From Promethearchaeia archaeon (GTDB lineage Archaea > Asgardarchaeota > Lokiarchaeia > Sigyniarchaeales > SOKP01): a stretch of 64,000 bases of DNA. Made by a program: the position numbers and the translations under genes. The stretch is taken from assembly GCA_029856145.1 (NCBI GenBank), contig JAHQWK010000032.1, positions 1 to 64,000 on the forward strand, given 5' to 3'. The notes under the pieces are model-generated. The model ran no database searches. It worked only from the letters and a program-made list of their open reading frames with translations, and was not told the origin of the DNA. Positions 16,486 to 42,260 of this stretch are shown here, piece by piece. Every line of letters starts with the position of its first letter. Within the stretch, counting starts at the first letter, position 1.

Positions 16486-17400
16486 TTGGGAAAAAAATTG
16501 GCATCATTAAGTTCAGATCAGAAAAAAAATTCTGAAAACAATATTATTAAAGAAGAAATTAGTTTAAATTTACGTTTATGGCTGCCTTTGTTCTATGTCA
16601 TTTACTATTGTTCTTTTTTAATACCGGGTGTAATTTTCATGCTCTATATAATGTTGTTCTATTTACCTAATTTCTTAGAAGTTGGAAGTTTTATTTCTCT
16701 TTTTACTAATTTACCTTCCCTCATTGCCTCTTTAACAATACCGTTTGTAATAATTCTTTGTTATTTAATACATTTATTTATAGTAGCGTTAATTACTCGA
16801 TGGTTTTGGAGCTTCTCAGAAAAGAAATCTCCTTCTAAATCCGGGATCATTCCGAGAAATATACCTAGTAAGACTTTAAATTATTATCATTTTCGCAGTT
16901 TTATTATCAAGTATCCTAAAAACGCATTTTCTCGAGGTCCATTTCCCTGGTTATTAAAGTGGATGTTTAACTTTGTAGGGACTAATAAAATAGGAAAAGG
17001 ATCTGTCATTGAGGAACAACTTGCGGGGGATCGATTTGTAGAAGTTGGGGAAAATTCTTATATCGGGACAAATCCAGGTATCAGTTCACATTCTGTAGAT
17101 GGTGTTTTCGGTAATATTTCATTTGCTAAGATTAAAATTGGAAACAATGTTACTGCTGCGGGATTTAATTGTTTTGCCCCTGGTGTGGATATCGGAGATA
17201 ATTCGTGGTGGTTACCGATGACAGGAGCAACTAAATATAACATTTTGAAAGGTAATAACTTCTATTTCGGCACTCCCCTCAGGAAGATTTTCAAAAGAAA
17301 GGTAATGGAGTACTTGCAAATTTCAGAAGATGATTTGAAAAGGGTAGAAGAACTTAATGAAAAATTGAATTTATCAAAAAAAAGAAAAAAAAAGATGTGA
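16486..17400 (+). CDS. Membrane LbH (hexapeptide-repeat) acyltransferase-like module, type A1
   Basis: Two TM helices, SPSKSGIIPRN, IGKGSVIE..VGENSYIG..IGNNVTA repeats. Start may be TTG at 16498. Confidence 0.85.
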   Translation: MGKKLASLSSDQKKNSENNIIKEEISLNLRLWLPLFYVIYYCSFLIPGVIFMLYIMLFYLPNFLEVGSFISLFTNLPSLIASLTIPFVIILCYLIHLFIVALITRWFWSFSEKKSPSKSGIIPRNIPSKTLNYYHFRSFIIKYPKNAFSRGPFPWLLKWMFNFVGTNKIGKGSVIEEQLAGDRFVEVGENSYIGTNPGISSHSVDGVFGNISFAKIKIGNNVTAAGFNCFAPGVDIGDNSWWLPMTGATKYNILKGNNFYFGTPLRKIFKRKVMEYLQISEDDLKRVEELNEKLNLSKKRKKKM

Positions 17401-17411
17401 GAAACAACTAA

Positions 17412-18302
17412 ATGAACTCTGATACTAAAGAAGAGAAAATAAATAATAGTAAAATTGATTACACAATTGACTTTATAACTACAAGTGCAATAAGTAAAAT
17501 TGGCTATAAATTTCTTGTTTTATATCTCCCAATTTTATGGGTTTCTGGATATATGACTGTTGCTGTATTCTTCGATGTATCAAGTTATATCCCATGGTAT
17601 ATAAATATGTTTTTAATCCCTGTATGGTTATTCATTTTATATTTTATTTTCGTTTTTGGAATCACGATTTTTACAAAAGCCTTTATCTTAATAATAAATA
17701 TGCTTCATAAACCTAAAGAGGGAGTATTCAGAGCTGAAGAAGGTGATCGAGATTATGAGTTTTGGCGATTAAGAGTAGAATTGAAGAAATTAGTTTTTTG
17801 GTTTATGAATAATGGTCCTCTAACATGGATAGTAATGTGGGGCTTCAGATGGATGGGTATTAAGGTAGATTTTTCAAGTCATGCTCAAGATTCTTGGTTG
17901 GATGAGAGATTTATTGAATTCGGGCGAAATGTTACTGTAGGCCAAGGAGCTGTTGTAATGAGCTCTCAAATCGTCGGGAAATATTTGATAATCAAAAAGA
18001 TTTTTCTTGGAGATCACACAGTTGTAGGTGGTTTATCACTCATATCTCCTGGCACAATTATGGGTAAGGAATCTGTAATTGGCGCATTTTCTGCGACAAT
18101 TCCAAACCAAAAAATAGACCCGGGTTGGATTTACTTAGGGCCACATGCAGCTAGGAAATTAAAACCAAATAAATTTGCGGAACAACGTCGAGATCTAATA
18201 TATGAGAAAAATGTGGATGATGAAGTAAAATTTGAAGTTAAACAAGAAGTCAACATAGATGAAGATAAGAAAAAGTTCTTAAACAATAATAGAGAGGATT
18301 AA
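17412..18302 (+). CDS. Membrane LbH acyltransferase-like module, type B1
   Basis: IDFITTSAISK, two TM, HKPKEGVF...YEFW, FGRNVTVGQGAVV repeats. Confidence 0.85.
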   Translation: MNSDTKEEKINNSKIDYTIDFITTSAISKIGYKFLVLYLPILWVSGYMTVAVFFDVSSYIPWYINMFLIPVWLFILYFIFVFGITIFTKAFILIINMLHKPKEGVFRAEEGDRDYEFWRLRVELKKLVFWFMNNGPLTWIVMWGFRWMGIKVDFSSHAQDSWLDERFIEFGRNVTVGQGAVVMSSQIVGKYLIIKKIFLGDHTVVGGLSLISPGTIMGKESVIGAFSATIPNQKIDPGWIYLGPHAARKLKPNKFAEQRRDLIYEKNVDDEVKFEVKQEVNIDEDKKKFLNNNRED

Positions 18303-19156
18303 TGAATATGTCAGTACCTTCGAGTTTAAAAGTAGGACCAAATACGACTCTTATCTTAGCAAAGAAGAGATATGTAATCTTTTACGTCTTTTTAATTTGG
18401 ATTAGTATTTTTACAATACAGTTTGAATTTTGGTTGTTCTGGAAACTTTATGAGCCGAAATTCATTCATTTTTTACTTTTCTTACCTTTATTAGTTTTTG
18501 TTATGTATCTAACATCAATTTTAGTATCCTTAATCTTTGCTAAAATAATTTTAGTAATCATTAATCTTATTCATAAACCACGAGAAGGAGTGTTCTTAAG
18601 ACATCACTCGGATAAAGATTATAGATATTGGAGTCTTAGAAGTATTATAAAAAAATGGCCGTTTTGGCTATCACACAAATTTCCTTTTCCTTTTATGAAT
18701 AATATATGTTCTAAAATGTTTGGTATAAAAACTAACTACACCAACTCTTTATTTGAAGGATGGGTTGATACAGAATTCATTAAATTTGGAAAGAACGTTG
18801 TAGTTGGACAGGGGGCAATAGTCCAGTCATCCATTATTTTTGGAAATTTATTTATTATAAGAAAAACCATCATTGAAGACAATGTTATGATTGGTTCCCA
18901 AAGTGTTGTTATGCCTGGAACCTATATGAAAAAAAATTCTATTTTAGGAGGTCATTCAATGACCATAGTAGGTCAAAAATTAGAAGAGAATTTTATTTAT
19001 TTAGGAGCTCCAGCTAAAAAGTTTAAAAAAAATGTATTTTATGAAGATGGATTGGAAGATATTATTAAAAATCAAGGAATAGGAGATATTAAAACAGAAG
19101 CAAAATTTGAAGGATTATATACTGTACGTAAGGATAAAGAGATTATTGATGATTAG
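18302..19156 (+). CDS. Membrane LbH acyltransferase-like module, type C1
   Basis: MSVPSSLKVGP N-terminus, two TM, HKPREGVF...DYRYWSLR, FGKNVVVGQGA; stop/start overlap with B1. Confidence 0.85.
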   Translation: MNMSVPSSLKVGPNTTLILAKKRYVIFYVFLIWISIFTIQFEFWLFWKLYEPKFIHFLLFLPLLVFVMYLTSILVSLIFAKIILVIINLIHKPREGVFLRHHSDKDYRYWSLRSIIKKWPFWLSHKFPFPFMNNICSKMFGIKTNYTNSLFEGWVDTEFIKFGKNVVVGQGAIVQSSIIFGNLFIIRKTIIEDNVMIGSQSVVMPGTYMKKNSILGGHSMTIVGQKLEENFIYLGAPAKKFKKNVFYEDGLEDIIKNQGIGDIKTEAKFEGLYTVRKDKEIIDD

Positions 19157-20558: not shown

Positions 20559-21398
20559 ATGAACTCTATTGAAAAATCAGAAGATGGTTGGCTAATACCA
20601 AAATCTCCAATTACATTTGATTATCTAAAAAGATTCAATCGAAATATGGGTATTTTACATTTAGTGCAGGGTTTACTAATGGTCCTTTTTGGCTTTTTAC
20701 CTCAACTAGCTTTTTCCAGAGACCTTTACACTTTTTACCTAAAATTTGAACTTATTGGTCCAGATTATATTATCTCACCAAATCCTACGGTACTTTTTGT
20801 CTTTAGTGCTTTAGGGGCATTTGTTGGATCCTTTTTATTGATGTCTGCTATTGCCCATCTATTAATTGCTTACCCACTTAATAAAAGTTATGTCAAGAAT
20901 TTAAAAAGAGGAATAAATAAGATACGTTGGTTTGAGTACGCCTTTTCAAGTTCAGTGATGATTTTCTTAATCGCTATTTTTTTTGGCGTGTGGGATTTCT
21001 GGGCATTGTTTATGATTTTTGTCTTAAATGCTCTGATGAATATGTTTGGTTTAATGATGGAATCATATAATGTATATACGAGAGAAAAAAATGAGAAGGT
21101 TAAATGGGGTCCATATTATTTAGGTGTTATTGCCGGAGCCGTTCCTTGGATTGTAATTACTGCTTACTTTATAAGTACTGAAACAATTGGAGGAGAAGTA
21201 CCACTATTTGTCTATTTGATTTACGGAATAGAACTATTTTTCTTTAATACATTCGCTATCAACATGATATTGCAATATAAAGGAGTAGGAAAGTGGAAAG
21301 ATTATCTCTACGGTGAAAGAGTGTATCAACTTTTAAGTCTTGTATCTAAAACATTTCTAGCATGGCTTGTATTTGCAGGAGTATTTAGTCCAACATAA
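20559..21398 (+). CDS. heR: Heliorhodopsin
   Basis: 7 TM; N..MGILHLVQ, SAIAH, RWFEYAFSSS, FFNTFAINMILQY, YLYGERVYQLLSLVSK (retinal-binding Lys). Confidence 0.93.
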   Translation: MNSIEKSEDGWLIPKSPITFDYLKRFNRNMGILHLVQGLLMVLFGFLPQLAFSRDLYTFYLKFELIGPDYIISPNPTVLFVFSALGAFVGSFLLMSAIAHLLIAYPLNKSYVKNLKRGINKIRWFEYAFSSSVMIFLIAIFFGVWDFWALFMIFVLNALMNMFGLMMESYNVYTREKNEKVKWGPYYLGVIAGAVPWIVITAYFISTETIGGEVPLFVYLIYGIELFFFNTFAINMILQYKGVGKWKDYLYGERVYQLLSLVSKTFLAWLVFAGVFSPT

Positions 21399-21439: not shown

Positions 21440-23080
21440 TTAAGCTTCTAATACATAAAGTGGCCATTTTTTCAAAACTCCTTTAGGATTTTTCCCGCTT
21501 CTAACTTTCTGTAACATTTCAGAGCGTGTCGCTAAGAAGTCTATTGGATTATTCTTAATTAGTTCTATTTCTATTTCATTATTTAAAATAGCTTCTTTAA
21601 ACTTTTCATTTCTAATACAGTTAAGTAAAATTTTGCTATAATTCTTTAAATTAGAGCAATTTTTCCTATCGTTTGAATAAAGAAATAATTTCAAACTATT
21701 ATTTACAGATTCTTTATAGATTAATAATAATAGAGAATCAATATCTAAGACACATTTGTCTTTTAAACAATTTAATAGAATTCGCGGATTTAAAATTTCG
21801 AAATTAGGAAAAGTAAAGTAATCACCAGCATAAACTTTATAATTCAATTGCAATCCTATCTCTTTCGATAAGTTTATTGGATATTTTAATTGAAAACTTG
21901 AACGTAAAATTTTTCCATCAATTTGAGGAAGACCTTCCTGATTTTTAATAGAAATAACGTCACCCAAATCTATATTAATTAAAACTCCTGAGTTATTAAG
22001 TCGTGAAACATAAAGCCTACCAAATTTATTTTTGGTCCTTGAAATTAACTCTTTTTTTCCTTTATAATCTATTACTGGAAGAGTTAGAGGAAAGATATGC
22101 ATTCTATTTAAGCGTGAAATTTCAAAATCTCCCATGTTTATGCTTGCAGCAAATGGGCCAATTTCAGAAGCTACATAAAGATTTGTAAATTTTTCTTTAC
22201 CCTCTTCCCATTTCATAAATTTACGAATTAATTCCCAATCTGATTTTGATAATGAACTTATACTAAATACCAAAGTTGCTTTCGATATTTTTTCAGATAA
22301 TTCTTTTTGAATTTCATATGAAACACTATCTAATCCATTCTTTTCAATTTTTAATAGAAAGTCTTCAAGTTTTGGATTTTGAGTTTTATTTATTAAATAA
22401 AGTGATCTTTTTATCCCATCTTGGAGTCTAGTAATATCTGCCCATCCTAAAATTGTTATTGCTGGTGCAGAAATAACTGAGATATTATCCATTGTTAAAA
22501 TTTTAGATATTATATCTAAGTTTCTTGAATTTTTATATTCATAAAACAGATATGCTTTTGGTTTAATAACGGATAGCATGATTCTTTGAGAAAATTCCGA
22601 GGAGTAAAGTGAAATATATTTCTTATCTCCTTGTTTTTGAATCCCATCAAATTTAAGCCTTGAAGGAACAAAAATAATAGCAGAGGAATTTAAATCTAAC
22701 CCACTCGATTCAAAAATTGCTTGCATACCAGGAGCCCATTGTCTTTTGACAATGTCTTTTGCCATATGAAACCATTTTAGTTCTGATAATTTACTATTTG
22801 TAGTCCCTGAAGTATGACAAAAAATTAATGCGTCAGAAGCTTTATCACTATTGAGAAAATCATCTATATCTATTGAGAAACTTCTAGAATCAGTTGTTTC
22901 AGATTTTATCCTATTGAAAAGATCTTCAATAGATGATAGCTCTGAAAGCTTTAATGACAATTCTTCATATTCCTCTCGAGAATCTATTTCAAGCCAATGT
23001 TTCCAATTTATCCTTTCTATATCTGAAAAAGATTTATTGAAGTTATTTTGAACTTTTTCATCAAAGTCATAAGATACCAA
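21440..23080 (-). CDS. GH3-like / ANL-superfamily adenylate-forming enzyme
   Basis: HTSGTT (P-loop), YVASEIG (YxxSE), IDLGDVI (GD motif). Confidence 0.65.
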   Translation of the reverse strand: MVSYDFDEKVQNNFNKSFSDIERINWKHWLEIDSREEYEELSLKLSELSSIEDLFNRIKSETTDSRSFSIDIDDFLNSDKASDALIFCHTSGTTNSKLSELKWFHMAKDIVKRQWAPGMQAIFESSGLDLNSSAIIFVPSRLKFDGIQKQGDKKYISLYSSEFSQRIMLSVIKPKAYLFYEYKNSRNLDIISKILTMDNISVISAPAITILGWADITRLQDGIKRSLYLINKTQNPKLEDFLLKIEKNGLDSVSYEIQKELSEKISKATLVFSISSLSKSDWELIRKFMKWEEGKEKFTNLYVASEIGPFAASINMGDFEISRLNRMHIFPLTLPVIDYKGKKELISRTKNKFGRLYVSRLNNSGVLINIDLGDVISIKNQEGLPQIDGKILRSSFQLKYPINLSKEIGLQLNYKVYAGDYFTFPNFEILNPRILLNCLKDKCVLDIDSLLLLIYKESVNNSLKLFLYSNDRKNCSNLKNYSKILLNCIRNEKFKEAILNNEIEIELIKNNPIDFLATRSEMLQKVRSGKNPKGVLKKWPLYVLEA

Positions 23081-24990: not shown

Positions 24991-25923
24991 GTGATAAAAT
25001 TGGAATCAAATAGTCCAGATCAAAAAGAAAATACTGAAAATAACATTATTAAAGAAGAAATTAAGTTACAGTTGCATATATGGCTACCTACATTCTATGT
25101 TATTTACTACTGTTCTTTTCTAATTCCGGGAATAATCTTCATGATGTATATGATGTTATTTTATTTGCCATTCTTCTTAGAGGAAGCAAACTTTATTTCT
25201 CTTTTTACTAATTTGCCTTCTCTCATTGCCTCTTTAACAATACCATTTGTAATAATAATATGTTACCTAATACATATATTTATTATAGCTCTAATAACTC
25301 GGTTGATTTGGAGATTCTCAGAAAAAAAATCTCCTTCTAAATCCGGAATCATCCCAAGAAATATCCCCAGTTTAACGTTAAATTATTATCACTTTCGTAG
25401 TTTTATTATAAAATATCCCAAAAACGTGTTTTCCCGAGGCCCATTTCCTTGGTTATTAAAATGGATGTATAATTTCGTCGGAACAAATAAAATAGGAAAA
25501 GGATCTGTCATTGAGGAGCAACTAGCTGGGGATAGGTTTGTAGAAATTGGAGAAAATACTTATATAGGAACAAATCCAGGTATCAGTTCACATGCAGTGG
25601 AAGGAACTTTTGGTAATATTTCATTTGCAAAGATAAAAATTAGAGATAATGTTACTGCTGCTGGATTTAATTGTTTTGGCCCGGGACTGGATACAGGAAA
25701 TAACTCATGGTGGTTACCTATGACTGGAGCAACGAAATACAACATTTTAAAAGGTAATAACTTCTATTTCGGCACTCCCCTCAGGAAGATTTTCAAAAGA
25801 AAGGTAATGGAGTACTTACAAATTTCAGAAGAGGATTTAAAAAGAGCAGAGGATTTTAAAAAAAAAATTGAATTAAAAAATCAAAAGAAAAAGAAGAAGA
25901 GGGAGATTCAAATAAATGAATGA
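24991..25923 (+). CDS. Membrane LbH module, type A2
   Basis: Close paralog of 16486..17400. Confidence 0.85.
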   Translation: MIKLESNSPDQKENTENNIIKEEIKLQLHIWLPTFYVIYYCSFLIPGIIFMMYMMLFYLPFFLEEANFISLFTNLPSLIASLTIPFVIIICYLIHIFIIALITRLIWRFSEKKSPSKSGIIPRNIPSLTLNYYHFRSFIIKYPKNVFSRGPFPWLLKWMYNFVGTNKIGKGSVIEEQLAGDRFVEIGENTYIGTNPGISSHAVEGTFGNISFAKIKIRDNVTAAGFNCFGPGLDTGNNSWWLPMTGATKYNILKGNNFYFGTPLRKIFKRKVMEYLQISEEDLKRAEDFKKKIELKNQKKKKKREIQINE

Positions 25924-26833
25924 AAATCTAGAAGAGAAAAAAAATGACGCAACTAAAGTCGATTATACTATTGATTTTGTAACAACTAGTGCGATTAGCA
26001 AAATTGGCTATAAATTTATTGGTTTTTATATCCCAATCTTATGGATTTCTGGATATATGGCGATTGCAGTATTTTTTGATGTCTCTAAGGGAATTTTTGA
26101 ACTAACTGGTCGATTTACCAGTGTGATAATCACCATGTTTCTTATACCAATATGGTTATTTGTTCTATATTTTATTTTTGTTTTTGGGATTGCTATGTTT
26201 ACAAAAGCATTCCTTCTAATAATAAACATGCTCCATAAGCCTAAAGAAGGAGTTTTCAGAGCAGAAGAAGGTGATCAAGATTATGAGTTTTGGAGACTAC
26301 GAGTAGAATTAAAGAAATTAGTTTTCTGGTTTATGAATAATGGGCCTTTGCCTTGGATTATAATGTGGGGTTTTAGATGGATGGATATTCATGTAGACTT
26401 TTCAAGTCATATGCAGGATGCATGGTCAGATGGTGGATTCATTGAATTCGGCCGAAATGTCACTGTAGGGCAAGGAGCAGTTGTAATGAGTTCAATGATT
26501 GTAGGAAAATATTTGATCATCAAAAAGGTTGTTCTAGGAGATCATACTGTCGTAGGTGGGCTATCACAGATCTCTCCGGGTACAATAATGGGTAAAGAAT
26601 CTGTGCTTGGTGCTTTTTCTACAACAATTCCCAGTCAATTTTTAGAACCAGGATGGATTTACTTAGGCCCTCAATTTGCAAGAAAACTAAAACCAAATAA
26701 ATATGCAGAGCAACGTAGAGATGTTATTATTGAGAAACATGTGGATGATGAAATAAAATATGAAGTTAAACAAGAAATTAATATAGATGAAGCTAAGAAA
26801 AAGCTCGTAAATAATAATAAGGAGGAAGAATGA
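25916..26833 (+). CDS. Membrane LbH module, type B2
   Basis: Close paralog of 17412..18302. Confidence 0.85.
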   Translation: MNENLEEKKNDATKVDYTIDFVTTSAISKIGYKFIGFYIPILWISGYMAIAVFFDVSKGIFELTGRFTSVIITMFLIPIWLFVLYFIFVFGIAMFTKAFLLIINMLHKPKEGVFRAEEGDQDYEFWRLRVELKKLVFWFMNNGPLPWIIMWGFRWMDIHVDFSSHMQDAWSDGGFIEFGRNVTVGQGAVVMSSMIVGKYLIIKKVVLGDHTVVGGLSQISPGTIMGKESVLGAFSTTIPSQFLEPGWIYLGPQFARKLKPNKYAEQRRDVIIEKHVDDEIKYEVKQEINIDEAKKKLVNNNKEEE

Positions 26834-26836
26834 ACC

Positions 26837-27688
26837 ATGTCAGTGCCTTCAAGTTTAAAAGTTGGGCCAAATACAAGTCTTATCTTAGCAAAAAAGAGAT
26901 ATCTAATATTCTATATTTTTTTAATCTGGATTAGTATTTTTTCAATTCAATTTGAATTTTGGTTATTTTGGAAACTTTATATTATTGAGAAATACATTCA
27001 TTTTTATTTCTTCTTGCCTCTTTTCATTTTTATAATGTACCTTACGTCAATAATAGTATCGCTAATTTTTGCAAAAATTCTTCTTCTAATCGTTAATCTT
27101 GTTCATAAGCCACGTGAGGGTGTTTTCATTAGGCACCGATCTGATAAGGATTATAGATATTGGAGTTTGAGAAATACTATTAAGAAATGGCCAATTTGGA
27201 TATCTCACAAATTCCCGTTCCCATTTATGAACAATATATGCTTCAAAATGTTTGGAGTAAAAACTAAATATTCTAATTCTTTATTTGAAGGGTGGGTTGA
27301 TACAGAATTTATTGATATCGGTAAAAATGTGGTAGTTGGACAGGGCGCTGTTGTCCAATCAGCCATTATAGTTGGCAATTTATTTATTATTAAAAAAACT
27401 ATTATTGAGGATAATGTCGTAATTGGATCTCAAAGTGTTCTTATGCCCGGAACGCATATGAAAAATAATTCTATTTTAGGAGGTCATTCTATGACTACAG
27501 TAGGGCAAGAATTAGAAGAATATTGGATATATTTAGGTGCACCTGCAAAAAAGTTTAAAAAAAATGTATTCTTTGAAGAAGGTTTAGAAGAGATTATTAA
27601 ACAGCAAGCAGAAAAAAAAATAGAATCACGAAAAAGATTTGAAGATTTATATACAATGCGCAAAGACAAGGAAGCTAAAATTGATTAA
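26837..27688 (+). CDS. Membrane LbH module, type C2
   Basis: Close paralog of 18302..19156; starts MSVPSSLKVGP. Confidence 0.85.
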   Translation: MSVPSSLKVGPNTSLILAKKRYLIFYIFLIWISIFSIQFEFWLFWKLYIIEKYIHFYFFLPLFIFIMYLTSIIVSLIFAKILLLIVNLVHKPREGVFIRHRSDKDYRYWSLRNTIKKWPIWISHKFPFPFMNNICFKMFGVKTKYSNSLFEGWVDTEFIDIGKNVVVGQGAVVQSAIIVGNLFIIKKTIIEDNVVIGSQSVLMPGTHMKNNSILGGHSMTTVGQELEEYWIYLGAPAKKFKKNVFFEEGLEEIIKQQAEKKIESRKRFEDLYTMRKDKEAKID

Positions 27689-27735: not shown

Positions 27736-28536
27736 ATGAAAGTTGGATATATTCAAACATCTCCAATTTTTGGAGAAAAAAGGCAAAATTTTAAGAAAAT
27801 TGAAAAATTGATTACAAAATTAAAGGCAGATTTAATTGTATTACCAGAACTATTCGCTACAGGTTATGCTTTTGTCTCTAAAGAAGAAGCGGTCCCTTTA
27901 GCTGAAGATTTCAACGGTGAAACGGCTCAATTTTTAATAAAGATGGCCAAAATTACTGGTGCAATAATAATTGGAGGATTTATCGAAAAAGAAGAAGAGA
28001 AAATATACAATTCCGCAATGATTGTTTCAAGTGAAGGTGTTATTGGATCATATCGGAAGATCCATCTATATTTTAAAGAAAAGCTCTGGTTTTTTCCTGG
28101 AGATAAACCTTTAAAGGTATACGATATTGATGGAGTCAAAATTGGGATTATGATTTGCTTTGATTGGATTTTCCCGGAAACAACTCGTACTCTTGCTCTT
28201 CTTGGTGCAGACATCATTGCACATCCAACTAATTTAGTATTACCATATTGTCAGAAAGCAATGGTAACACGATGTTTAGAAAATCGAGTTTTTGCTGTAA
28301 CTGCAAACAGAATTGGTGAAGAAAAACGAGGTTCTGATCATTTTACGTTTACAGGAAAAAGTCAAATAACTTCTTATAATGGTGAAATTTTATCTTCAGC
28401 TCCAAGAGATGAAATTTATGTAGATTTTATAGATATAGATATTCAAAAAGCAAGAGACAAAAATCTAAATGAGTATAATAATTTATTTGAAGATAGACAG
28501 GTAGAATTTTATTATAATACTGATAAACCAAAGTAA
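27736..28536 (+). CDS. Nitrilase-family carbon-nitrogen hydrolase (amidase)
   Basis: E-K-C triad: LPELF, YRKIHL, MICFDW. Confidence 0.92.
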   Translation: MKVGYIQTSPIFGEKRQNFKKIEKLITKLKADLIVLPELFATGYAFVSKEEAVPLAEDFNGETAQFLIKMAKITGAIIIGGFIEKEEEKIYNSAMIVSSEGVIGSYRKIHLYFKEKLWFFPGDKPLKVYDIDGVKIGIMICFDWIFPETTRTLALLGADIIAHPTNLVLPYCQKAMVTRCLENRVFAVTANRIGEEKRGSDHFTFTGKSQITSYNGEILSSAPRDEIYVDFIDIDIQKARDKNLNEYNNLFEDRQVEFYYNTDKPK

Positions 28537-28753: not shown

Positions 28754-30511
28754 ATGGTAAACTCCGAAACACCTTTAATTGAACACGATTCAGAAAAAAA
28801 AGTTATTAGAGAAGATATTAAATTCCAATATTTTTGGTATCTTGTTGTCTTATTTACGATTTACTTAATTTCATATTTAATTCCTGCTATTTTATTCATG
28901 ATTTACTTTCTATTTTATTTTATCCCTTCCTTTTTAGAAACTACAAATTTCCTATCAATTTTTATTAATTTAAAACCTCTTTTGGCATTAATATCCATGC
29001 CTTTGGTTATTATCGTATGTTATCTAATCCGCTTATTTCTGATTGCATTAGTTGCGCGCTTTTTTTGGAGATTGTCAGAAAAAAAATCCCCTTCTAAACC
29101 AGGCACTATACCAAGAAATTTCCCAAGTAAAACGCTAAATTTTTATCACATAAGATCTTTCATAATAAAATATCCCAAAACCGCTTTCACTAAAGGAATT
29201 TTTCCGTGGTTGTTACCATGGCTATATAATTTTGTAACCACGAGCCAGATTCAGAAAGGGACGACAATGGAAGAATCTTGTGTGAATGATAAATTTTTAG
29301 AAATTGGGAAAAATTGCTACATCGGTGTTAATTCAGTATTTACTAGTCATTTAATTGATGGTATATTTGGAAATATTGCTTATTTTAAAATTAAAGTAGG
29401 TGATAATGTTACCGCTGCGGCAAAAAACCTAATTGGTCCCGGTTCTGAAATTAAAGATAATTCCTACTTACTCCCTTTAGCTTCCACACCAAAACATAGC
29501 ATATTAAAAGGCAATAGCTATTATTTTTCAGCAGGAGCAAAACCCCTCCAGAGAATATCTAAAAGAAAAATTAAGAGCTATTTGAAAATTGACCCTGAAA
29601 CATTAGAACAAATAAAAGACGTTAAAGATGCAATTGGTTCTTCACCAGTTCAAACACAAGAAACGAATGAGGAGAGAGAAAAAGATTTATCGATCAATTT
29701 CGTCACAAGCAGCGCAATAAGTAGAGTTAATCTAAAATTTTTAATTTTGTATATCCCTATCTTTTGGCTTTCTGGGATGTTAGACGCTATAATCTTTTAT
29801 ACATATACTTATTATGTTCAAAACGGGATTTTAATGGTCTTTTTTTTACCAGCGATAATGTTTTTTATGTGGTTTGTATTTATTTTCAGCTGTTTAATTT
29901 TTAGTAAACTGTTTCTAATCTTAATAAACTTGACTCATAAGCCAAAAGAGGGAATCTTTAAAGCTGAAAAGGGCGATAATGATTTTGAATTTTGGTGCTT
30001 ACGGATCGAATTAAAGAAAATTGTGTTATGGCTTGTACGAAATTGGCCTCTTCCTTGGATGGACATATTAGTTTTCAAATGGTTTGGAATAAAAATAAAT
30101 TTTTCATGTGGCTTGTGGGATTCATGGTGTGATGCAGAGTTCATTCATTTCGGACGTAAAGTTTTAATAGGGCAAGGAGCAACGGTCATGTCTTCTATGG
30201 TTATTGGTAAATATTTAATTATCAAAAAAGTGATATTTGATGATTATTCTCTTATCGGTGGTCATTCTATTATCTCTCCAGGAACAATAGTAGGAAAAGA
30301 GACATTAGTTGGTGCTTTATCATATTCTTTATATAATCAAGTATTAGAGCCCGGATGGGTATATTTTGGAATGCCCATACAAAAATTGAAGAAGAACAAA
30401 TATGCCGAGGAACGACGGAACAAAATAATGAAAAGAGATGTTGATGAAGAAAAGAAATTTGAAATTGATCATGACATCAATATTGAAGAAGATAAGAAAG
30501 AGCTTGCTTAA
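28754..30511 (+). CDS. Fused A+B membrane LbH protein (AB3)
   Basis: N-half aligns with type A; C-half, from INFVTSSAISR, aligns with type B. Confidence 0.85.
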   Translation: MVNSETPLIEHDSEKKVIREDIKFQYFWYLVVLFTIYLISYLIPAILFMIYFLFYFIPSFLETTNFLSIFINLKPLLALISMPLVIIVCYLIRLFLIALVARFFWRLSEKKSPSKPGTIPRNFPSKTLNFYHIRSFIIKYPKTAFTKGIFPWLLPWLYNFVTTSQIQKGTTMEESCVNDKFLEIGKNCYIGVNSVFTSHLIDGIFGNIAYFKIKVGDNVTAAAKNLIGPGSEIKDNSYLLPLASTPKHSILKGNSYYFSAGAKPLQRISKRKIKSYLKIDPETLEQIKDVKDAIGSSPVQTQETNEEREKDLSINFVTSSAISRVNLKFLILYIPIFWLSGMLDAIIFYTYTYYVQNGILMVFFLPAIMFFMWFVFIFSCLIFSKLFLILINLTHKPKEGIFKAEKGDNDFEFWCLRIELKKIVLWLVRNWPLPWMDILVFKWFGIKINFSCGLWDSWCDAEFIHFGRKVLIGQGATVMSSMVIGKYLIIKKVIFDDYSLIGGHSIISPGTIVGKETLVGALSYSLYNQVLEPGWVYFGMPIQKLKKNKYAEERRNKIMKRDVDEEKKFEIDHDINIEEDKKELA

Positions 30512-30622
30512 CTTAAATTTCTGAAAAATTCGAATTAGAAAACATATATTTTTAAAACATTGTGTTTTTTAGAAAAAATATCTTAATTACTAAATATAAA
30601 TCAAAATTGAAAATTTAATGCT

Positions 30623-32452
30623 ATGACAAAAACGGAGCAACAATCAACTGAAAATGTTTCAGAGGATCAAGTTCCCCAAGAAGAAATTAAATTTCCATAT
30701 TTTTCGTTTTTACTTATATTTTTTATTATTTATTTGGCTTCATTGATTGTACCAGCACTAATATTTTTAGTTTATATATTCCTCTATTTTTTACCTCAAT
30801 TTTTAGAAATTACAAATTTTTTTGCTCTTTTTACAGAAATTAAGTCCCTAATTGCATTAATAACTATGCCTCTTGTTCTCATTTGTTGTTATCTTCTCCG
30901 GTTATTTTTCATAGGTCTAATTACACGTGGATTTTGGAGATCTAGTGAAAAAAAATTACCTAGTAAAAATGGGATAATACCAAGAAATGTTCCAAGTAAG
31001 GCATTGAATTATTATCAGAAGAGAAGCTTTATGATCAAATATGGAAAAAATTCCTTTATAAAAGGGGCCTTTCCTTGGCTTAGTAATTGGTTTTTCAACT
31101 TTGTGGGGTCAAATCAAATTGGAAAAGGTACAACCTTTGAGGAAAGTTCTGGTAATGACAAATTCGCAATTGTAGGTAAAAATTGTTATTTTGGTGTTAA
31201 CTCAATGTTAGCTAGCCATTTGGTAGATGGAACTTTTGGAAATATTAATTACTTTCAAATAAAAGTAGGAGATAATGTTACAACCGCCGGAACAAACCTG
31301 ATTGCACCGGGATCAGAAGTACATGATAATTCTTATTTATTACCTATAGCTTCGACCCCAAAACATAGTGTATTAAAAGGAAATAATTTTTATTGGGGGT
31401 TACCACTCAGGAAAATATTCAGAAAGAAGATAATGAAATATTTAGGGGTAACTCCAAAAGATTTAGAGATGAATGATAATGTTGAAGGTTACGCTGATAA
31501 AAAATTATTGGAAAAATTGAAAGCAGAGAAAGAATTGAGACAATCTGAGATTATCCCCAAAGAGGAACAAATAAAAGTAAATTTAGGAGAGGATGAAATT
31601 GACATAAATAATTTAACAGAAAAAAAATTAGCAATTGATTTCACGACAAGTAGCGCGATTTCAAGAGTTAATATAAAATTCCTAATCTTATATATCCCTA
31701 TTTTTTGGCTTTCTGGGATGTTAGACTCTATAATTTTTTATACATATACTTATTATGTTCAAAACGGGATTTTAATGGCTTTTTTTCTGCCAACTTTGGT
31801 AATCATTATGTGGTTTGTATTTATATTAGGTTGTTTCTTTTTCAGCAAGTTATTTTTAGTTTTAATAAATTTGATTCACAAACCTAAAGAAGGTATTTTT
31901 AAAGCAGAAATTGGTGACACTGATTTTGAGTTTTGGTGTTTACGGACAGAAGTGAAAAAAATTGTGATATGGCTTATACGAAATTGGCCTCTTCCTTGGA
32001 TGGACATACTAGCTTTTAAATGGTTTGGAATAAGAATGAGCTTATCTAGCTCTTTATATGATTCTTGGTGCGATGGTGAATTTATATCATTTGGGCGAAG
32101 GGTATTAGTTGGTCAAGGAGCCACTATCATGTCTTCGATGGTTGTTGGTAAATACTTGATTATAAAGAATGTTATATGTGGTGATTATTCTCTTATCGGT
32201 GGACACACCACTATAGCGCCAGGGACTGTTATAGGCGAAGATACTTTTGTGAGTGCAATTTCAAATACAATATATAACCAGATTCTTGAGCCCGGGTGGC
32301 TCTATCTTGGAATACCCGTGAAAAAACTCAAGGAAAATAAATACAGGAAAGAGAGAAGAGATATAATCATGAAAAGAGACGTAGACGAAGAAGAAAAATT
32401 CGAGATTGAACATGAAATTAACATTGAAGACGACAAAAAAGATCTTACCTAG
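30623..32452 (+). CDS. Fused A+B membrane LbH protein (AB4)
   Basis: Same two-module architecture as AB3. Confidence 0.85.
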   Translation: MTKTEQQSTENVSEDQVPQEEIKFPYFSFLLIFFIIYLASLIVPALIFLVYIFLYFLPQFLEITNFFALFTEIKSLIALITMPLVLICCYLLRLFFIGLITRGFWRSSEKKLPSKNGIIPRNVPSKALNYYQKRSFMIKYGKNSFIKGAFPWLSNWFFNFVGSNQIGKGTTFEESSGNDKFAIVGKNCYFGVNSMLASHLVDGTFGNINYFQIKVGDNVTTAGTNLIAPGSEVHDNSYLLPIASTPKHSVLKGNNFYWGLPLRKIFRKKIMKYLGVTPKDLEMNDNVEGYADKKLLEKLKAEKELRQSEIIPKEEQIKVNLGEDEIDINNLTEKKLAIDFTTSSAISRVNIKFLILYIPIFWLSGMLDSIIFYTYTYYVQNGILMAFFLPTLVIIMWFVFILGCFFFSKLFLVLINLIHKPKEGIFKAEIGDTDFEFWCLRTEVKKIVIWLIRNWPLPWMDILAFKWFGIRMSLSSSLYDSWCDGEFISFGRRVLVGQGATIMSSMVVGKYLIIKNVICGDYSLIGGHTTIAPGTVIGEDTFVSAISNTIYNQILEPGWLYLGIPVKKLKENKYRKERRDIIMKRDVDEEEKFEIEHEINIEDDKKDLT

Positions 32453-32464
32453 GACATCTCAACT

Positions 32465-32878
32465 TTAATCAATTTTCAAGGTAAATTGCTGTTCTAAAAA
32501 CCTTTTCAAATTCGAACATGTAATTTTTAGACTTTGTTTTGTATTATAAAATTGCTCCTTTCTAGGGCAATCATCATCAAGTAAGCATTTTTTTTTGTTA
32601 ATATCATAGATTAATGGATAAAATCGGCATCCTTGAGGTCGAAATTCATAAATTTTACATTTCTTTGCAGAGTAGTTTAAAAAAACGCAATGACCATCAA
32701 TATTTTTTAGTTGAAATTGCTCATTTTTATTTTTAAAAGCAATATCTTGTTTCTTTATTTTATTCGGATAACTTTTTACTATTAAGTCAATGTCTTGTTG
32801 AGAAAGTATCATTTCTGTTTCTAAACAACACTCTCCGCAATTTTCACATATGTTTTTCAATTTCTGCCTACGAATCAT
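32465..32878 (-). CDS. YkgJ-family cysteine-cluster protein
   Basis: CENCGECC...CVFL...CKIYEFRPQGCRFYP. Confidence 0.9.
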   Translation of the reverse strand: MIRRQKLKNICENCGECCLETEMILSQQDIDLIVKSYPNKIKKQDIAFKNKNEQFQLKNIDGHCVFLNYSAKKCKIYEFRPQGCRFYPLIYDINKKKCLLDDDCPRKEQFYNTKQSLKITCSNLKRFLEQQFTLKID

Positions 32879-32974
32879 AAATTTAAAAGGAAAAAAAAAT
32901 AACTATTAAAGTAAATAAGTATCAATTGCTTTTTAATAGAAATAAATAAGTTGATCTAGGATTGACTAGTCAAA

Positions 32975-34834
32975 ATGAGTGAAGAATCTGAAGAAAGTGA
33001 TCTTCCAAATAATAATGAAGTTATAAAAGAAGAGGTCAGTCTTCAGTACCATTTATATATCTTTATTTTTGCATTAATATTTTATGGTTCATGGGTAATT
33101 CCCGGGATTTGCTTTTTTTGGTATTTGCTTCAAGTATTCCTACCATATGTATTAGATGTTACTAATTTTTTCCTTATCTTTATTCAATTGGAGTCATTAA
33201 TCGCATTTCTCTCAATGCCGTTAGTTCTTATTGGATGTTATTTGTTGCGTTTATTCTTTTTAGGACTATCTACTAAGATTTTTTGGAAGATATCTGAAAA
33301 AACCTCTCCATCAAAAGCGGGAGTGATTCCACGAAATATTCGTAGTAGAGCGGCAAATTACTATCATTTAAGAGGTTTTATGATTAAATACGGAAAAAAT
33401 ACCTTTACAAAGGGAGTTTTTACTTGGCTCAGTAATTGGTTTTTTAATTTTATAGGAGCATCCAAAATAGGGAAAGGTACGACGTTGGAGGAATCTGTAG
33501 TTAATGATAAATTTATTGAAATTGGGAAGAACTGTTATTTGGGGGTAAATTCTGCTTTAGGGACTCATGTAGTGGAGGGAATCTTTGGTAATATCTCATA
33601 CTTCAAAGTTAAAGTTGGCGATAACGTTACCGGGGCAACAACAAATTTAATTGGGCCTGGATCAGAAATACGCGATAATTCATTTCTGCTTCCTTTAGCT
33701 TGCGCGACAAAACATAGTATAGCAGGAAAACCTCCCTTAATTAATTACTATTGGGGCATGCCATTAAGACGAATATTCAGAAGAAAGATAATGCAATATT
33801 TGGGTGTATCAGCAAAAGACTTAGAGAAAAATGAAAATATTCAAGGTTATGCTGATAAAAAATTACTGAAAAAATTAAAAGCCGAAGAAATCATTGATAA
33901 CACTCACAATAAGCAACATGTAGTTAGTAAATTACCTGAGGATAAAATAAACGTAAATGCTTTAACAGCAAAAGATTTAGAAGTGGATTTTACTACGAGT
34001 TCTGCGATCAGTAGAGTAAATATAAAGGTTTTAGCTGTTTATATACCAATATTTTGGCTAGCAGGACTAGTAGTTTCGATCTTTTGGTACTGGTATCTTT
34101 CTGATGAGAATTGGGCTATGATTTTAACCTTTCTCCCCCTTGCTTTATTTGGTTCAATTTATTTTTTTATTTTTGCTTGTATGCTCTTTAGTAAATTATT
34201 CTTAATTTTTGTAAATTTAATTCATAAACCCAAGGAGGGTGTCTTTAAAGCCGAGATTGGTGATAAGGATTTTGAATTCTGGATGTTTAGAACTGAATTA
34301 AAGAAAATGATTTTATGGTTTATGCGATATTCACCATTTCCATGGTTAGATGTACTAGCTTTTAAATTAATTGGGGTTGATATGGATACATCTAGCCATC
34401 TTAATGATACTTGGTGTGATGGTGAATTCATTAAATTTGGCAGAAAGAATTTAATCGGTCAAGGAGCCAATATTATGTCGAGTACAGTAATAGGTAAGTA
34501 TTTGATCATTAAAAAAGTAATATTTGATGACTATGTAATGGTTGGAGCTCATACAACTATAGGGCCTGGAACAATAATAGGTAAAGAGACAATCGTTGGT
34601 GCGATTTCCACCACCACATTTAATCAAGTTCTTGAGCCTGGGTGGATTTACACAGGAATTCCTGTCACAAAATTCAAACCAAACAAATATGCTGCATCTC
34701 GTAGAGAAATCCTTGTAAAAAAAGATGTAGATGAAGCAAGAAAATATGAAGTCACACATGAAGTAAACATAGATGAGGATAAGAAAGAATTAATTAAAAC
34801 AGAAAATAATAATAATGTTCATGATTCTTCTTGA
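32975..34834 (+). CDS. Fused A+B membrane LbH protein (AB5)
   Basis: Same two-module architecture as AB3. Confidence 0.85.
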   Translation: MSEESEESDLPNNNEVIKEEVSLQYHLYIFIFALIFYGSWVIPGICFFWYLLQVFLPYVLDVTNFFLIFIQLESLIAFLSMPLVLIGCYLLRLFFLGLSTKIFWKISEKTSPSKAGVIPRNIRSRAANYYHLRGFMIKYGKNTFTKGVFTWLSNWFFNFIGASKIGKGTTLEESVVNDKFIEIGKNCYLGVNSALGTHVVEGIFGNISYFKVKVGDNVTGATTNLIGPGSEIRDNSFLLPLACATKHSIAGKPPLINYYWGMPLRRIFRRKIMQYLGVSAKDLEKNENIQGYADKKLLKKLKAEEIIDNTHNKQHVVSKLPEDKINVNALTAKDLEVDFTTSSAISRVNIKVLAVYIPIFWLAGLVVSIFWYWYLSDENWAMILTFLPLALFGSIYFFIFACMLFSKLFLIFVNLIHKPKEGVFKAEIGDKDFEFWMFRTELKKMILWFMRYSPFPWLDVLAFKLIGVDMDTSSHLNDTWCDGEFIKFGRKNLIGQGANIMSSTVIGKYLIIKKVIFDDYVMVGAHTTIGPGTIIGKETIVGAISTTTFNQVLEPGWIYTGIPVTKFKPNKYAASRREILVKKDVDEARKYEVTHEVNIDEDKKELIKTENNNNVHDSS

Positions 34835-34916
34835 TAATATAATTAAAAATTTGAAAATTTTATAGAACAATTTAAAAAAGAGAAGGAGAAATGTAAAAAA
34901 ATAAGAGTGATAAAAG

Positions 34917-35897
34917 ATGTCGGTTCCAAATACAATGCGTGTAGAGTAAGATGCGATTCGAATCTTGCACACTAGGCCTTTCACGCCCTCGGTTTTGGCA
35001 AAAAAAAGATATTTAATTTTTTATATATTTCTGATATGGGCAAGTATAATCCCTTTACTCCTAGAATTGTGGGTGTATTGGCGGTGGTTATGGAATTATG
35101 ATAGGCCTGTCCATTTTTATACATTCCTTCCTCTTTTAGGTGTACTGATGTATGTAACAATTGTCTTTTCAGGAATAATATTTGCTAAAATACTTTTGAT
35201 TTTTGTTAATGCAATTCACAAGCCTCGAGAAGGTGTATTTTTGAGAATTCCAGAAGATCGAGATTATCGATATTGGAGCCTAAGAAATACTATAAAGCGT
35301 TGGCCGGTTTGGCTTGCTCACAGATTTCCATTTCCAGGAATTATGGATAATGTTTGTTTTAAAATGTTTGGAGTAAAAACTAAAATAAGTAATTCCTTAT
35401 TTGAAGGATGGGTAGATACAGAATTCATAGATTTTGGTAAAGATGTAGTAGTTGGGCAAGGAGCAATTGTTCAATCTGCTGTTATTATTGGTAATTTGTT
35501 AATAATCCGAAAAACAATAATAGAAGATAATGTAAGGATAGGTTCACATGCTATAGTTATGCCTGGTACTCATATAGGGCAAAATTGCATTCTCGCAGCA
35601 AATTCAGTAACAACAGTTGGACAAGAGTTAGAAAGAGGTTGGATTTATGTAGGGATTCCAGCAAAACAATTCAAAAAGAACTATTTCTTTGAAGATGGAT
35701 TGGAAGATAAGATTGGCCATGTTGAAGACGTTGAAAGTTTGAGAGAAAAATACGAAGATATCTATATTAGACGAAAAGATGAGCTTAAACGTAAAGATCG
35801 TAGAGAAATTAAGAAAGAAAAGAAAGAAGAAGAAAAGAAGAGATTTGATTATGAGGCCGAGGAATGGGAAGATATTGATGACGGTTTCAGTATATAA
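34917..35897 (+). CDS. Membrane LbH module, type C3, intron-containing: join(34917..34944,34975..35897), 316 aa
   Basis: ATG at 34917 with RBS GAGTGAT (34905..34911). The spliced N-terminus MSVPNTMRVGPFTPSVLAKKRY aligns without gaps to MSVPSSLKVGPNTSLILAKKRY of C2. Confidence 0.88.
34945..34974 (+). other. 30-nt archaeal bulge-helix-bulge (BHB) intron in an mRNA
   Basis: Central helix GUGU/ACAC, 3-nt bulges AGA and UAG, intron stem GUAAGAU/AUCUUGC; contains in-frame TAA (34947..34949). Confidence 0.88.
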
Positions 35898-41696: not shown

Positions 41697-42260
41697 TTGC
41701 CAGAACTTCCTTATGAAATATGGAAAGATAGAATTGATAATGAACTTAGTAATATGAAAAAGTTAGGTAATCTTGAAGAAAATTCAATAAATATGAATAG
41801 TAATAATATTGAATTAATTTTAAATATAACAGCGTTAGGGTTTGTCAGGGAAAAAGCAGACTTAGTACCAAAAAATTCTCATCGTATATATCTTAAAATA
41901 AATCGATCCTTTCCCTACCCTGGTGGTATAGATTTTTCTTGGCTATCAAAAATATTTCATCCTAATATTCATCCTATTGAATTATCATTTTCAAATGAAC
42001 CAGGAACAGGATATATATGTCTAAATATTTTAAAAAAATGGTCACGATTATCCGATTTAGTGACTACTGTTAGAGCTTTAAAAATATTAGTCGAAAATCC
42101 CAATCCTCATGACCCTCTTGATTATCCTGAATGTCTAGATGCTGCTAAATTTTATAAGAAAAATAATATCACGGAACTTAAGAAAAAGTATTCTTCTGAG
42201 GAGGGTTATAAGGATTCTGAGAGAAAAGAAGATGATGATATTAAAATCATAGAAGAATAA
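41697..42260 (+). CDS. Ubiquitin-conjugating enzyme E2-like
   Basis: FPY, IFHPNI, GYICLNILKKWS (catalytic Cys), NPNPHDPL. Confidence 0.92.
   Translation: MPELPYEIWKDRIDNELSNMKKLGNLEENSINMNSNNIELILNITALGFVREKADLVPKNSHRIYLKINRSFPYPGGIDFSWLSKIFHPNIHPIELSFSNEPGTGYICLNILKKWSRLSDLVTTVRALKILVENPNPHDPLDYPECLDAAKFYKKNNITELKKKYSSEEGYKDSERKEDDDIKIIEE

Follow-up and report, generated by a model that had tools for sequence, protein, structure and literature searches.

Does an intron in one subunit gene decide whether three alternative membrane complexes are assembled? The question is raised by C3, a gene in an array of paralogous A, B and C genes within the window analysed here (the whole 64,000-nucleotide (nt) stretch, positions 1 to 64,000 of contig JAHQWK010000032.1), which is contig 32 of a 3.55-Mb Promethearchaeia genome (G000) with 30% GC. 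C3 is the sole C gene 3′ of three genes in which A and B are fused (AB3, AB4 and AB5), and an earlier note on this DNA had proposed that activity of the splicing enzymes EndA and RtcB gates the assembly of three AB+C3 complexes after transcription. The explanation that we favour, and consider likely as a whole, is an old system of AB proteins with a shared C3 subunit, joined by a young, laterally spread and routinely removed intron that would not act as a switch. The parts of C3 on which the argument turns are these:

34917–34944, plus strand: C3 exon 1, beginning with the ATG at 34917 (9 codons and 1 nt).
34945–34974, plus strand: 30-nt bulge-helix-bulge (BHB) intron, with an in-frame TAA at 34947–34949 and an in-frame TTG at 34965.
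34975–35897, plus strand: C3 exon 2; the spliced product has 316 amino acids (aa).
34937–34986, plus strand: competing exon-exon helix, GCGUG (34937–41) with CACGC (34982–86), which overlaps the BHB helix in the computed minimum-energy fold.

Unspliced, C3 reads MSVPNTMRVE and then meets the TAA. The insert interrupts codon 10 (phase 1) and folds into a strict BHB, in which the central helix (GUGU 34939–42 with ACAC 34969–72) has four of four Watson-Crick pairs, the bulges (AG^A and UA^G) have 3 nt each, the inner stem has nine pairs and the outer exon helix only 2 bp. Cutting each bulge behind its second base gives a stop-free 316-aa C3, whose N-terminus, MSVPNTMRVGPF, matches the orthologues and includes G10 and P11, both invariant across 29 C1-, C2- and C3-class proteins. 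An assembly artefact was considered as the source of the insert and rejected, since the same insert is present, without a single change, in 11 other assemblies of this species. The sequence thus confirms, as far as letters can, that a real tRNA-type BHB intron interrupts C3, and it supports a dependence of C3 expression on splicing in this species. Every sequence hallmark of a cbf5-type BHB mRNA intron is present, namely a strict BHB, a restored reading frame and genes for EndA and RtcB in the host. In these respects the earlier note was accurate: C3 is the only intron-bearing paralogue in the array, operons 1 and 2 are independent of splicing because C1 and C2 carry no intron, and the insert does fall in codon 10 of a conserved N-terminal segment. 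Its further statement that unspliced RNA yields only the 10-aa peptide is likely rather than certain, since translation of the same RNA from the in-frame TTG at 34965 might in principle yield 310 aa.

Across the genus, 46 genomes have a C3 orthologue; in 44 of them the match begins at residue 1 or 2 and contains no stop, and the uninterrupted N-terminal DNA was read directly for 37 intronless genomes. The intron is found in two of the 46 species, this one and G049 (CSMAG_1226), the latter copy overturning the view that it was unique to this species. A search of the genus for another copy of the intron at other sites found none, matches with one mismatch occurring at control level. Two 249-aa homologues (P0109 and P0110) were considered as further intron cases and rejected, as they are truncated by contig edges. 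A third homologue, P0098 (JGI 3300042731), is called about 45 residues short within an intact contig and could hide an intron or a frameshift. Throughout the genus, one C3 goes with two or three AB fusions; both intron-bearing lineages have three AB genes, and G002 and G041 have three per C3 with no intron. As the layout of several AB genes and one C3 works intronless in 44 of 46 species, it predates the intron and does not need it, and with these relatives running the same gene set uninterrupted, the proposal of a regulatory switch finds no support.

The copy in G049 also informs the history of the intron. In that genome and in two related metagenome contigs, a homologous intron of 29 nt occupies the same site, and its spliced open reading frame (ORF) in G049 encodes 314 aa. 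The two lineages agree at 26 of 30 intron bases, the first 16 being identical; the four differences in G049 all fall in the 3′ half and retain the BHB. Since 29 nt shift the frame, read-through cannot rescue the G049 copy, and splicing is therefore the only route common to both. Exon 1 is identical between the two lineages (28 of 28 bases, against at most 25 of 28 in the 37 intronless species), whereas G049 exon 2 groups with that of the intronless G001 (ultrafast bootstrap, UFBoot, 100) in a tree of 39 sequences that leaves out seven orthologues without fetched DNA, and its monophyly with the present genome is rejected (approximately unbiased, AU, test, p=2e-9, 5000 replicates). The phylogeny called for in the earlier note thus places the intron in two non-sister species. 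Purifying selection acts on exon 2 in the two intron lineages, with a ratio of non-synonymous to synonymous substitution (dN/dS) of 0.06–0.11, the present C3 giving 0.06–0.08 when compared with relatives, and the synonymous divergence (dS) between the two intron-bearing genes is 1.2. Most likely, to judge from these alignments, exon 1 and the intron were transferred between orthologous loci by recombination, in a direction that cannot be assigned.

The C3 intron has company elsewhere in the genome, which encodes two EndA paralogues and RtcB and contains tRNA introns of 29–30 nt, the same size as its mRNA introns. Only 27 tRNAs were called in this assembly, many of them with introns of 29–30 nt or non-canonical introns. 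Four further mRNA BHB introns were confirmed against orthologues:

L001:11156–11185 (contig 18): rnhB BHB intron, 30 nt; in 6 of 6 genomes, with the loop diverged in all five congeners checked.
L117:1066–1096 (contig 3): mvk (mevalonate kinase) BHB intron, 31 nt; in 3 of 5 genomes, also in G005 and G023 and not in G002 or G032.
Contig 3, about 195586–195615 (L118), minus strand: uppS BHB intron, 30 nt; in 3 of 6 genomes, also in G005 and G023 and not in G016, G002 or G032.
Contig 18, about 41815–41846 (L119), minus strand: elf1 intron, 32 nt; in 4 of 9 genomes.

Mevalonate kinase and UppS act in lipid and glycan-carrier synthesis. Three of these four housekeeping introns are patchy, as that of C3 is; at the elf1 site, G049, G001 and G060 carry strongly diverged inserts and five others none, and the exon flanks of mvk are more alike among intron-bearing copies than among intronless ones. 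The central helix of C3 is the best formed of the five mRNA introns compared. A homology census against 0.8 Mb of G005 (578 orthologues), blind to introns common to both genomes, returned one stop-containing insert private to the present genome. No count was drawn from motif-only BHB scans of the genome, in which chance hairpins dominate at this GC content and known cases are missed. A pattern search for an intron in pyrG did not recover one. On contig 8 (about 31424–31453, minus strand), a 263-aa gene has a 30-nt stop-containing hairpin insert, absent in G005, with an imperfect BHB register. In Haloferax, EndA knock-down impairs growth and tRNA/rRNA maturation (PMC7714728). As EndA and RtcB are common to tRNA and housekeeping mRNA introns, lowered activity would not single out C3, and the enzymes themselves would therefore not serve as a selective gate: the tRNAs and the introns of mvk, uppS, rnhB and elf1 need the same pair.

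The genes among which C3 stands, all but one on the plus strand, are as follows:

16486–19156, plus strand: operon 1, with separate A1, B1 and C1 genes and no intron.
24991–27688, plus strand: operon 2, with separate A2, B2 and C2 genes and no intron.
28754–30511, plus strand: AB3, an A+B fusion of 585 aa with two modules, each of two transmembrane helices and a left-handed beta-helix.
30623–32452, plus strand: AB4, an A+B fusion of 609 aa.
32465–32878, minus strand: antisense CxxCxxCC (PF03692) gene, between AB3-AB4 and AB5-C3.
32975–34834, plus strand: AB5, an A+B fusion of 619 aa, the partner of C3 in the complex model.

The N-terminal halves of AB3–AB5 share 46–54% identity with A1 and A2, and the C-terminal halves 45–49% with B1 and B2. 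In a tree, A1 and A2 stand apart from the fused A halves, and C1 and C2 apart from C3. Two further C-class domains are encoded on other contigs of the genome: one in a 541-aa C-A fusion followed by a B gene (contig 18, L001:4937–7283; conserved in the genus), the other in a B+C pair (contig 2, L002:4717–6324), whose set a lone A gene on contig 22 (L003:4890–5690) could complete. The claim that AB3–AB5 have no C gene of their own but C3 stands for the window and has to be qualified for the genome, where a check for additional C genes did find these two, each with its own B partner and farther from C3 than C1 and C2 are. Each of the five sets adds up to a single A, B and C, the exception being C3, which is common to three AB genes.

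In every A, B or C module, two transmembrane helices are combined with a left-handed beta-helix. Among named families, the best match is to the Pls/PosA C-terminal domain (TIGR02353; E-values of 1e-7 to 1e-11, at 29–43 bits against a cut-off of 423), a fold search (Atlas) returned Pls/PosA synthetases at a template-modelling (TM) score of 0.54, and the scanned subunits have Pfam matches of the hexapeptide type only, with no fused adenylation or carrier domain. By their sequences, then, the A/B/C proteins appear to resemble the Pls/PosA family and not to be members of it. A complex model was run for AB5 and C3, as the earlier note had suggested, using exon 2 and hence lacking C3 residues 1–10; it scored 0.84, with the best of three controls at 0.00, and passes as three modules forming one unit in trans, by a mark that 58 of 80 solved complexes and 2 of 110 mismatched pairs reach, although this pass may stem from likeness to solved beta-helix trimers and cannot separate C3 from C1 or C2. 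Runs agreed in at least 89% of contacts, with a partner predicted local distance difference test (pLDDT) value of at least 81. C3 is 56–58% identical to C1/C2 at the modelled interface and 64–68% elsewhere, with fixed differences at 17 of 108 interface positions and 9 of 152 others (Fisher p=0.012), and among C3 orthologues the interface is more conserved than the remainder. C3 is probably the dedicated third subunit of the AB fusions, and one C3 serving several of them is plausible; that part of the three-complex proposal survives, with the AB5+C3 model and the interface differences in its favour, whereas the splicing gate attached to it finds no support. The modelling suggests that the complexes are most likely 1:1:1 pseudo-trimers like the three-repeat Pls/PosA C-terminal domain, and the predicted activity, judged from the fold only, would be that of a membrane acyltransferase whose active sites lie where subunits meet.

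Several other features of the array were seen in passing. A heliorhodopsin gene (20559–21398) and a carbon-nitrogen hydrolase gene (27736–28536) lie within it, as does a 546-aa gene without a Pfam match (21440–23080, minus strand); in most relatives, too, the ABC operon and the AB genes have a gene of this size between them. In G049 (L165:1737–2885), AB5 and C3 are not adjacent: between them lie a 405-aa gene and a GTPase-like gene represented by two ORFs of 189 and 178 aa. Exact runs of 40–72 nt at 28800–32700 are common to the window and the otherwise distant G041 and G049, which suggests, at sequence level, that the AB array is a recombination mosaic.

Taken together, we propose the following course of events. 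An A/B/C membrane beta-helix set, old and genus-wide, would have been duplicated into a three-gene version (A, B and C1 or C2) and a fused version (AB with C3), the AB gene then multiplying to two or three copies with one C3 in common. Much later and in patches, a tRNA-type BHB intron would have inserted at codon 10 of C3 in one lineage; its arrival in a second lineage, not sister to the first, is most readily explained by homologous recombination that carried exon 1 along. EndA would cut both bulges and RtcB join the exons routinely, as for tRNAs and the other intron-bearing mRNAs, and the intron would owe its persistence to being removable rather than to any gating of assembly.

Some observations weigh against this proposal. 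Constitutive splicing is a prediction, the C3 junction being covered by none of four contig sets from one study, which probably derive from DNA, and in this species the BHB fold lies 3.6–4.5 kcal/mol above the free ensemble (ViennaRNA), a penalty due to the competing exon-exon helix, which in these computations may leave room for partial splicing of C3. A dN/dS taken over a long branch would not register very recent decay. The identical 44-nt tract loses force as proof of transfer, since exact runs of 40–72 nt with congeners, equal or longer, occur elsewhere in the locus, as a control showed; the frequency of such runs suggests, on its face, a locus that recombines often. Many losses from an ancestor, or constraint at the RNA level, are possible alternatives to transfer.

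The folding penalty would be given its full weight if incomplete splicing lowered C3 output as a fixed, unselected cost independent of conditions. The 2-bp outer helix and the competing fold speak for such a leak, as does a computed central-helix probability of 0.03–0.19 in this species against 0.41–0.44 in the other intron-bearing lineage; nearest-neighbour models, however, ignore BHB stacking and enzyme binding, and rnhB scores worse and is yet kept in 6 of 6 genomes. We regard a leak of this kind as unlikely.

Quite unlikely, in our judgement, is regulated splicing that gates three AB+C3 complexes in the manner of IRE1-HAC1/XBP1. As EndA is shared, such a switch could work only through the C3 substrate, for example by a competing helix or a bound protein that masks the BHB. 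A competing fold does exist, unspliced RNA ends after ten codons, C3 is the only unpartnered C and differs from C1/C2 most at the modelled interface, so that these may not substitute for it, both intron lineages have three AB genes, and their identical exon 1 and 16 intron bases could reflect a conserved element. Against this, the layout is intronless in 44 of 46 species, three-AB genomes included, the competing CACGC arm is altered or partly lost in two other intron-bearing copies (L175/L176), and the folding penalty lies within the housekeeping-intron range of 1.4–8.9 kcal/mol. Near the locus no dedicated nuclease was seen, none having been searched for genome-wide. Judged by the IRE1-HAC1/XBP1 pattern, the intron should accompany the system wherever it occurs, and it is present in two of 46 species; the nuclease should be adjustable without blocking housekeeping substrates, and EndA is common to the tRNAs, mvk, uppS, rnhB and elf1, although a separate factor was not searched for. 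Bolder still, and very unlikely, is the idea that two Asgard lineages recruited the tRNA-type intron as a substrate-specific, condition-dependent gate on the single subunit common to three membrane complexes, an archaeal analogue of HAC1/XBP1 control that would act through BHB masking and would have spread because it was useful.

We consider it highly improbable that the intron was present in the ancestor of the genus and was lost many times, a history that would leave the verdict of no switch unchanged. The cbf5 intron shows lineage-specific losses (PMC2738675), and at a single site in elf1 the introns have diverged and are patchily distributed, but many losses would be needed among 44 intronless species, and the two C3 copies are too alike in intron and exon 1 for an exon 2 dS of 1.2. 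Finally, we give next to no credence to an absence of splicing, with C3 a recent pseudogene or expressed by TAA read-through or from the TTG at 34965 while C1 and C2 fill in: the 30-nt in-frame length, the in-frame TTG, an AB5 interface modelled without residues 1–10 and few strain differences, mostly non-synonymous (4 sites), would suit it, but the exact BHB register restores the invariant glycine, the 29-nt homologue is frame-shifted with changes that keep the BHB, and both lineages retain an intact exon 2 under constraint.

On the preferred explanation of a young, routinely removed intron in an old shared-C3 system, C3 and the four other genes checked show that Promethearchaeota (Loki-type Asgard) mRNAs carry BHB introns in several genes, with a practical consequence for annotation, as gene callers truncate the proteins: the database holds 249- and 274-aa entries for this 316-aa protein. 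What is new here is that a non-sister species carries, at the identical position, a frame-shifting homologue of 29 nt, which points, on the alignments, to lateral spread, and hence to exchange between orthologous loci as a concrete route by which BHB introns could arrive in Asgard genes. The intron-bearing and intronless sister species also lend themselves to a direct comparison that could show whether introns of this kind ever serve regulation. A switch would matter more if true; the comparative evidence is against it.

The closest known counterpart is the BHB intron of cbf5 pre-mRNA in Sulfolobales and Desulfurococcales (PMC2738675; PMC7714728), the only archaeal coding-region BHB intron named in the literature that we found. 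Like it, the C3 intron is short, lies near the 5′ end of an archaeal protein gene, forms a BHB presumably processed by EndA and a ligase, and is patchy among relatives; unlike it, it occurs in an Asgard host, in a membrane beta-helix gene, within a genome that has at least five such mRNA introns, is recent and common to non-sister species, and its splicing is predicted from sequence. A 2026 preprint on Asgard tRNA introns describes repeated gains, with no general arrival route and no splicing shown in an Asgard cell; its subject is tRNA genes alone, and it nowhere uses the words horizontal, recombination or gene conversion (bioRxiv 10.64898/2026.10.13.758758). The C3 intron resembles those introns in motif, in the 29–30 nt size seen in this genome, in repeated gains and in its enzyme, and differs in being an mRNA intron that apparently moved between orthologous loci. 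In the Pls/PosA C-terminal polymerisation domain, three repeats pack as one unit (PMC10522769), and the proteins modelled here would likewise form a pseudo-trimer of three repeats, each with two transmembrane helices and a left-handed beta-helix, although they are split into A, B and C genes or AB and CA fusions, have no fused adenylation or carrier domain and score far below the TIGR02353 cut-off. As in IRE1-HAC1/XBP1 (PMC13149111), full-length protein depends on the removal of a short mRNA intron by an endonuclease and a ligase; in that system the nuclease is dedicated to the task, is activated by a signal and has a conserved intron as its substrate, whereas C3 would depend on a housekeeping nuclease that removes an intron of patchy distribution.

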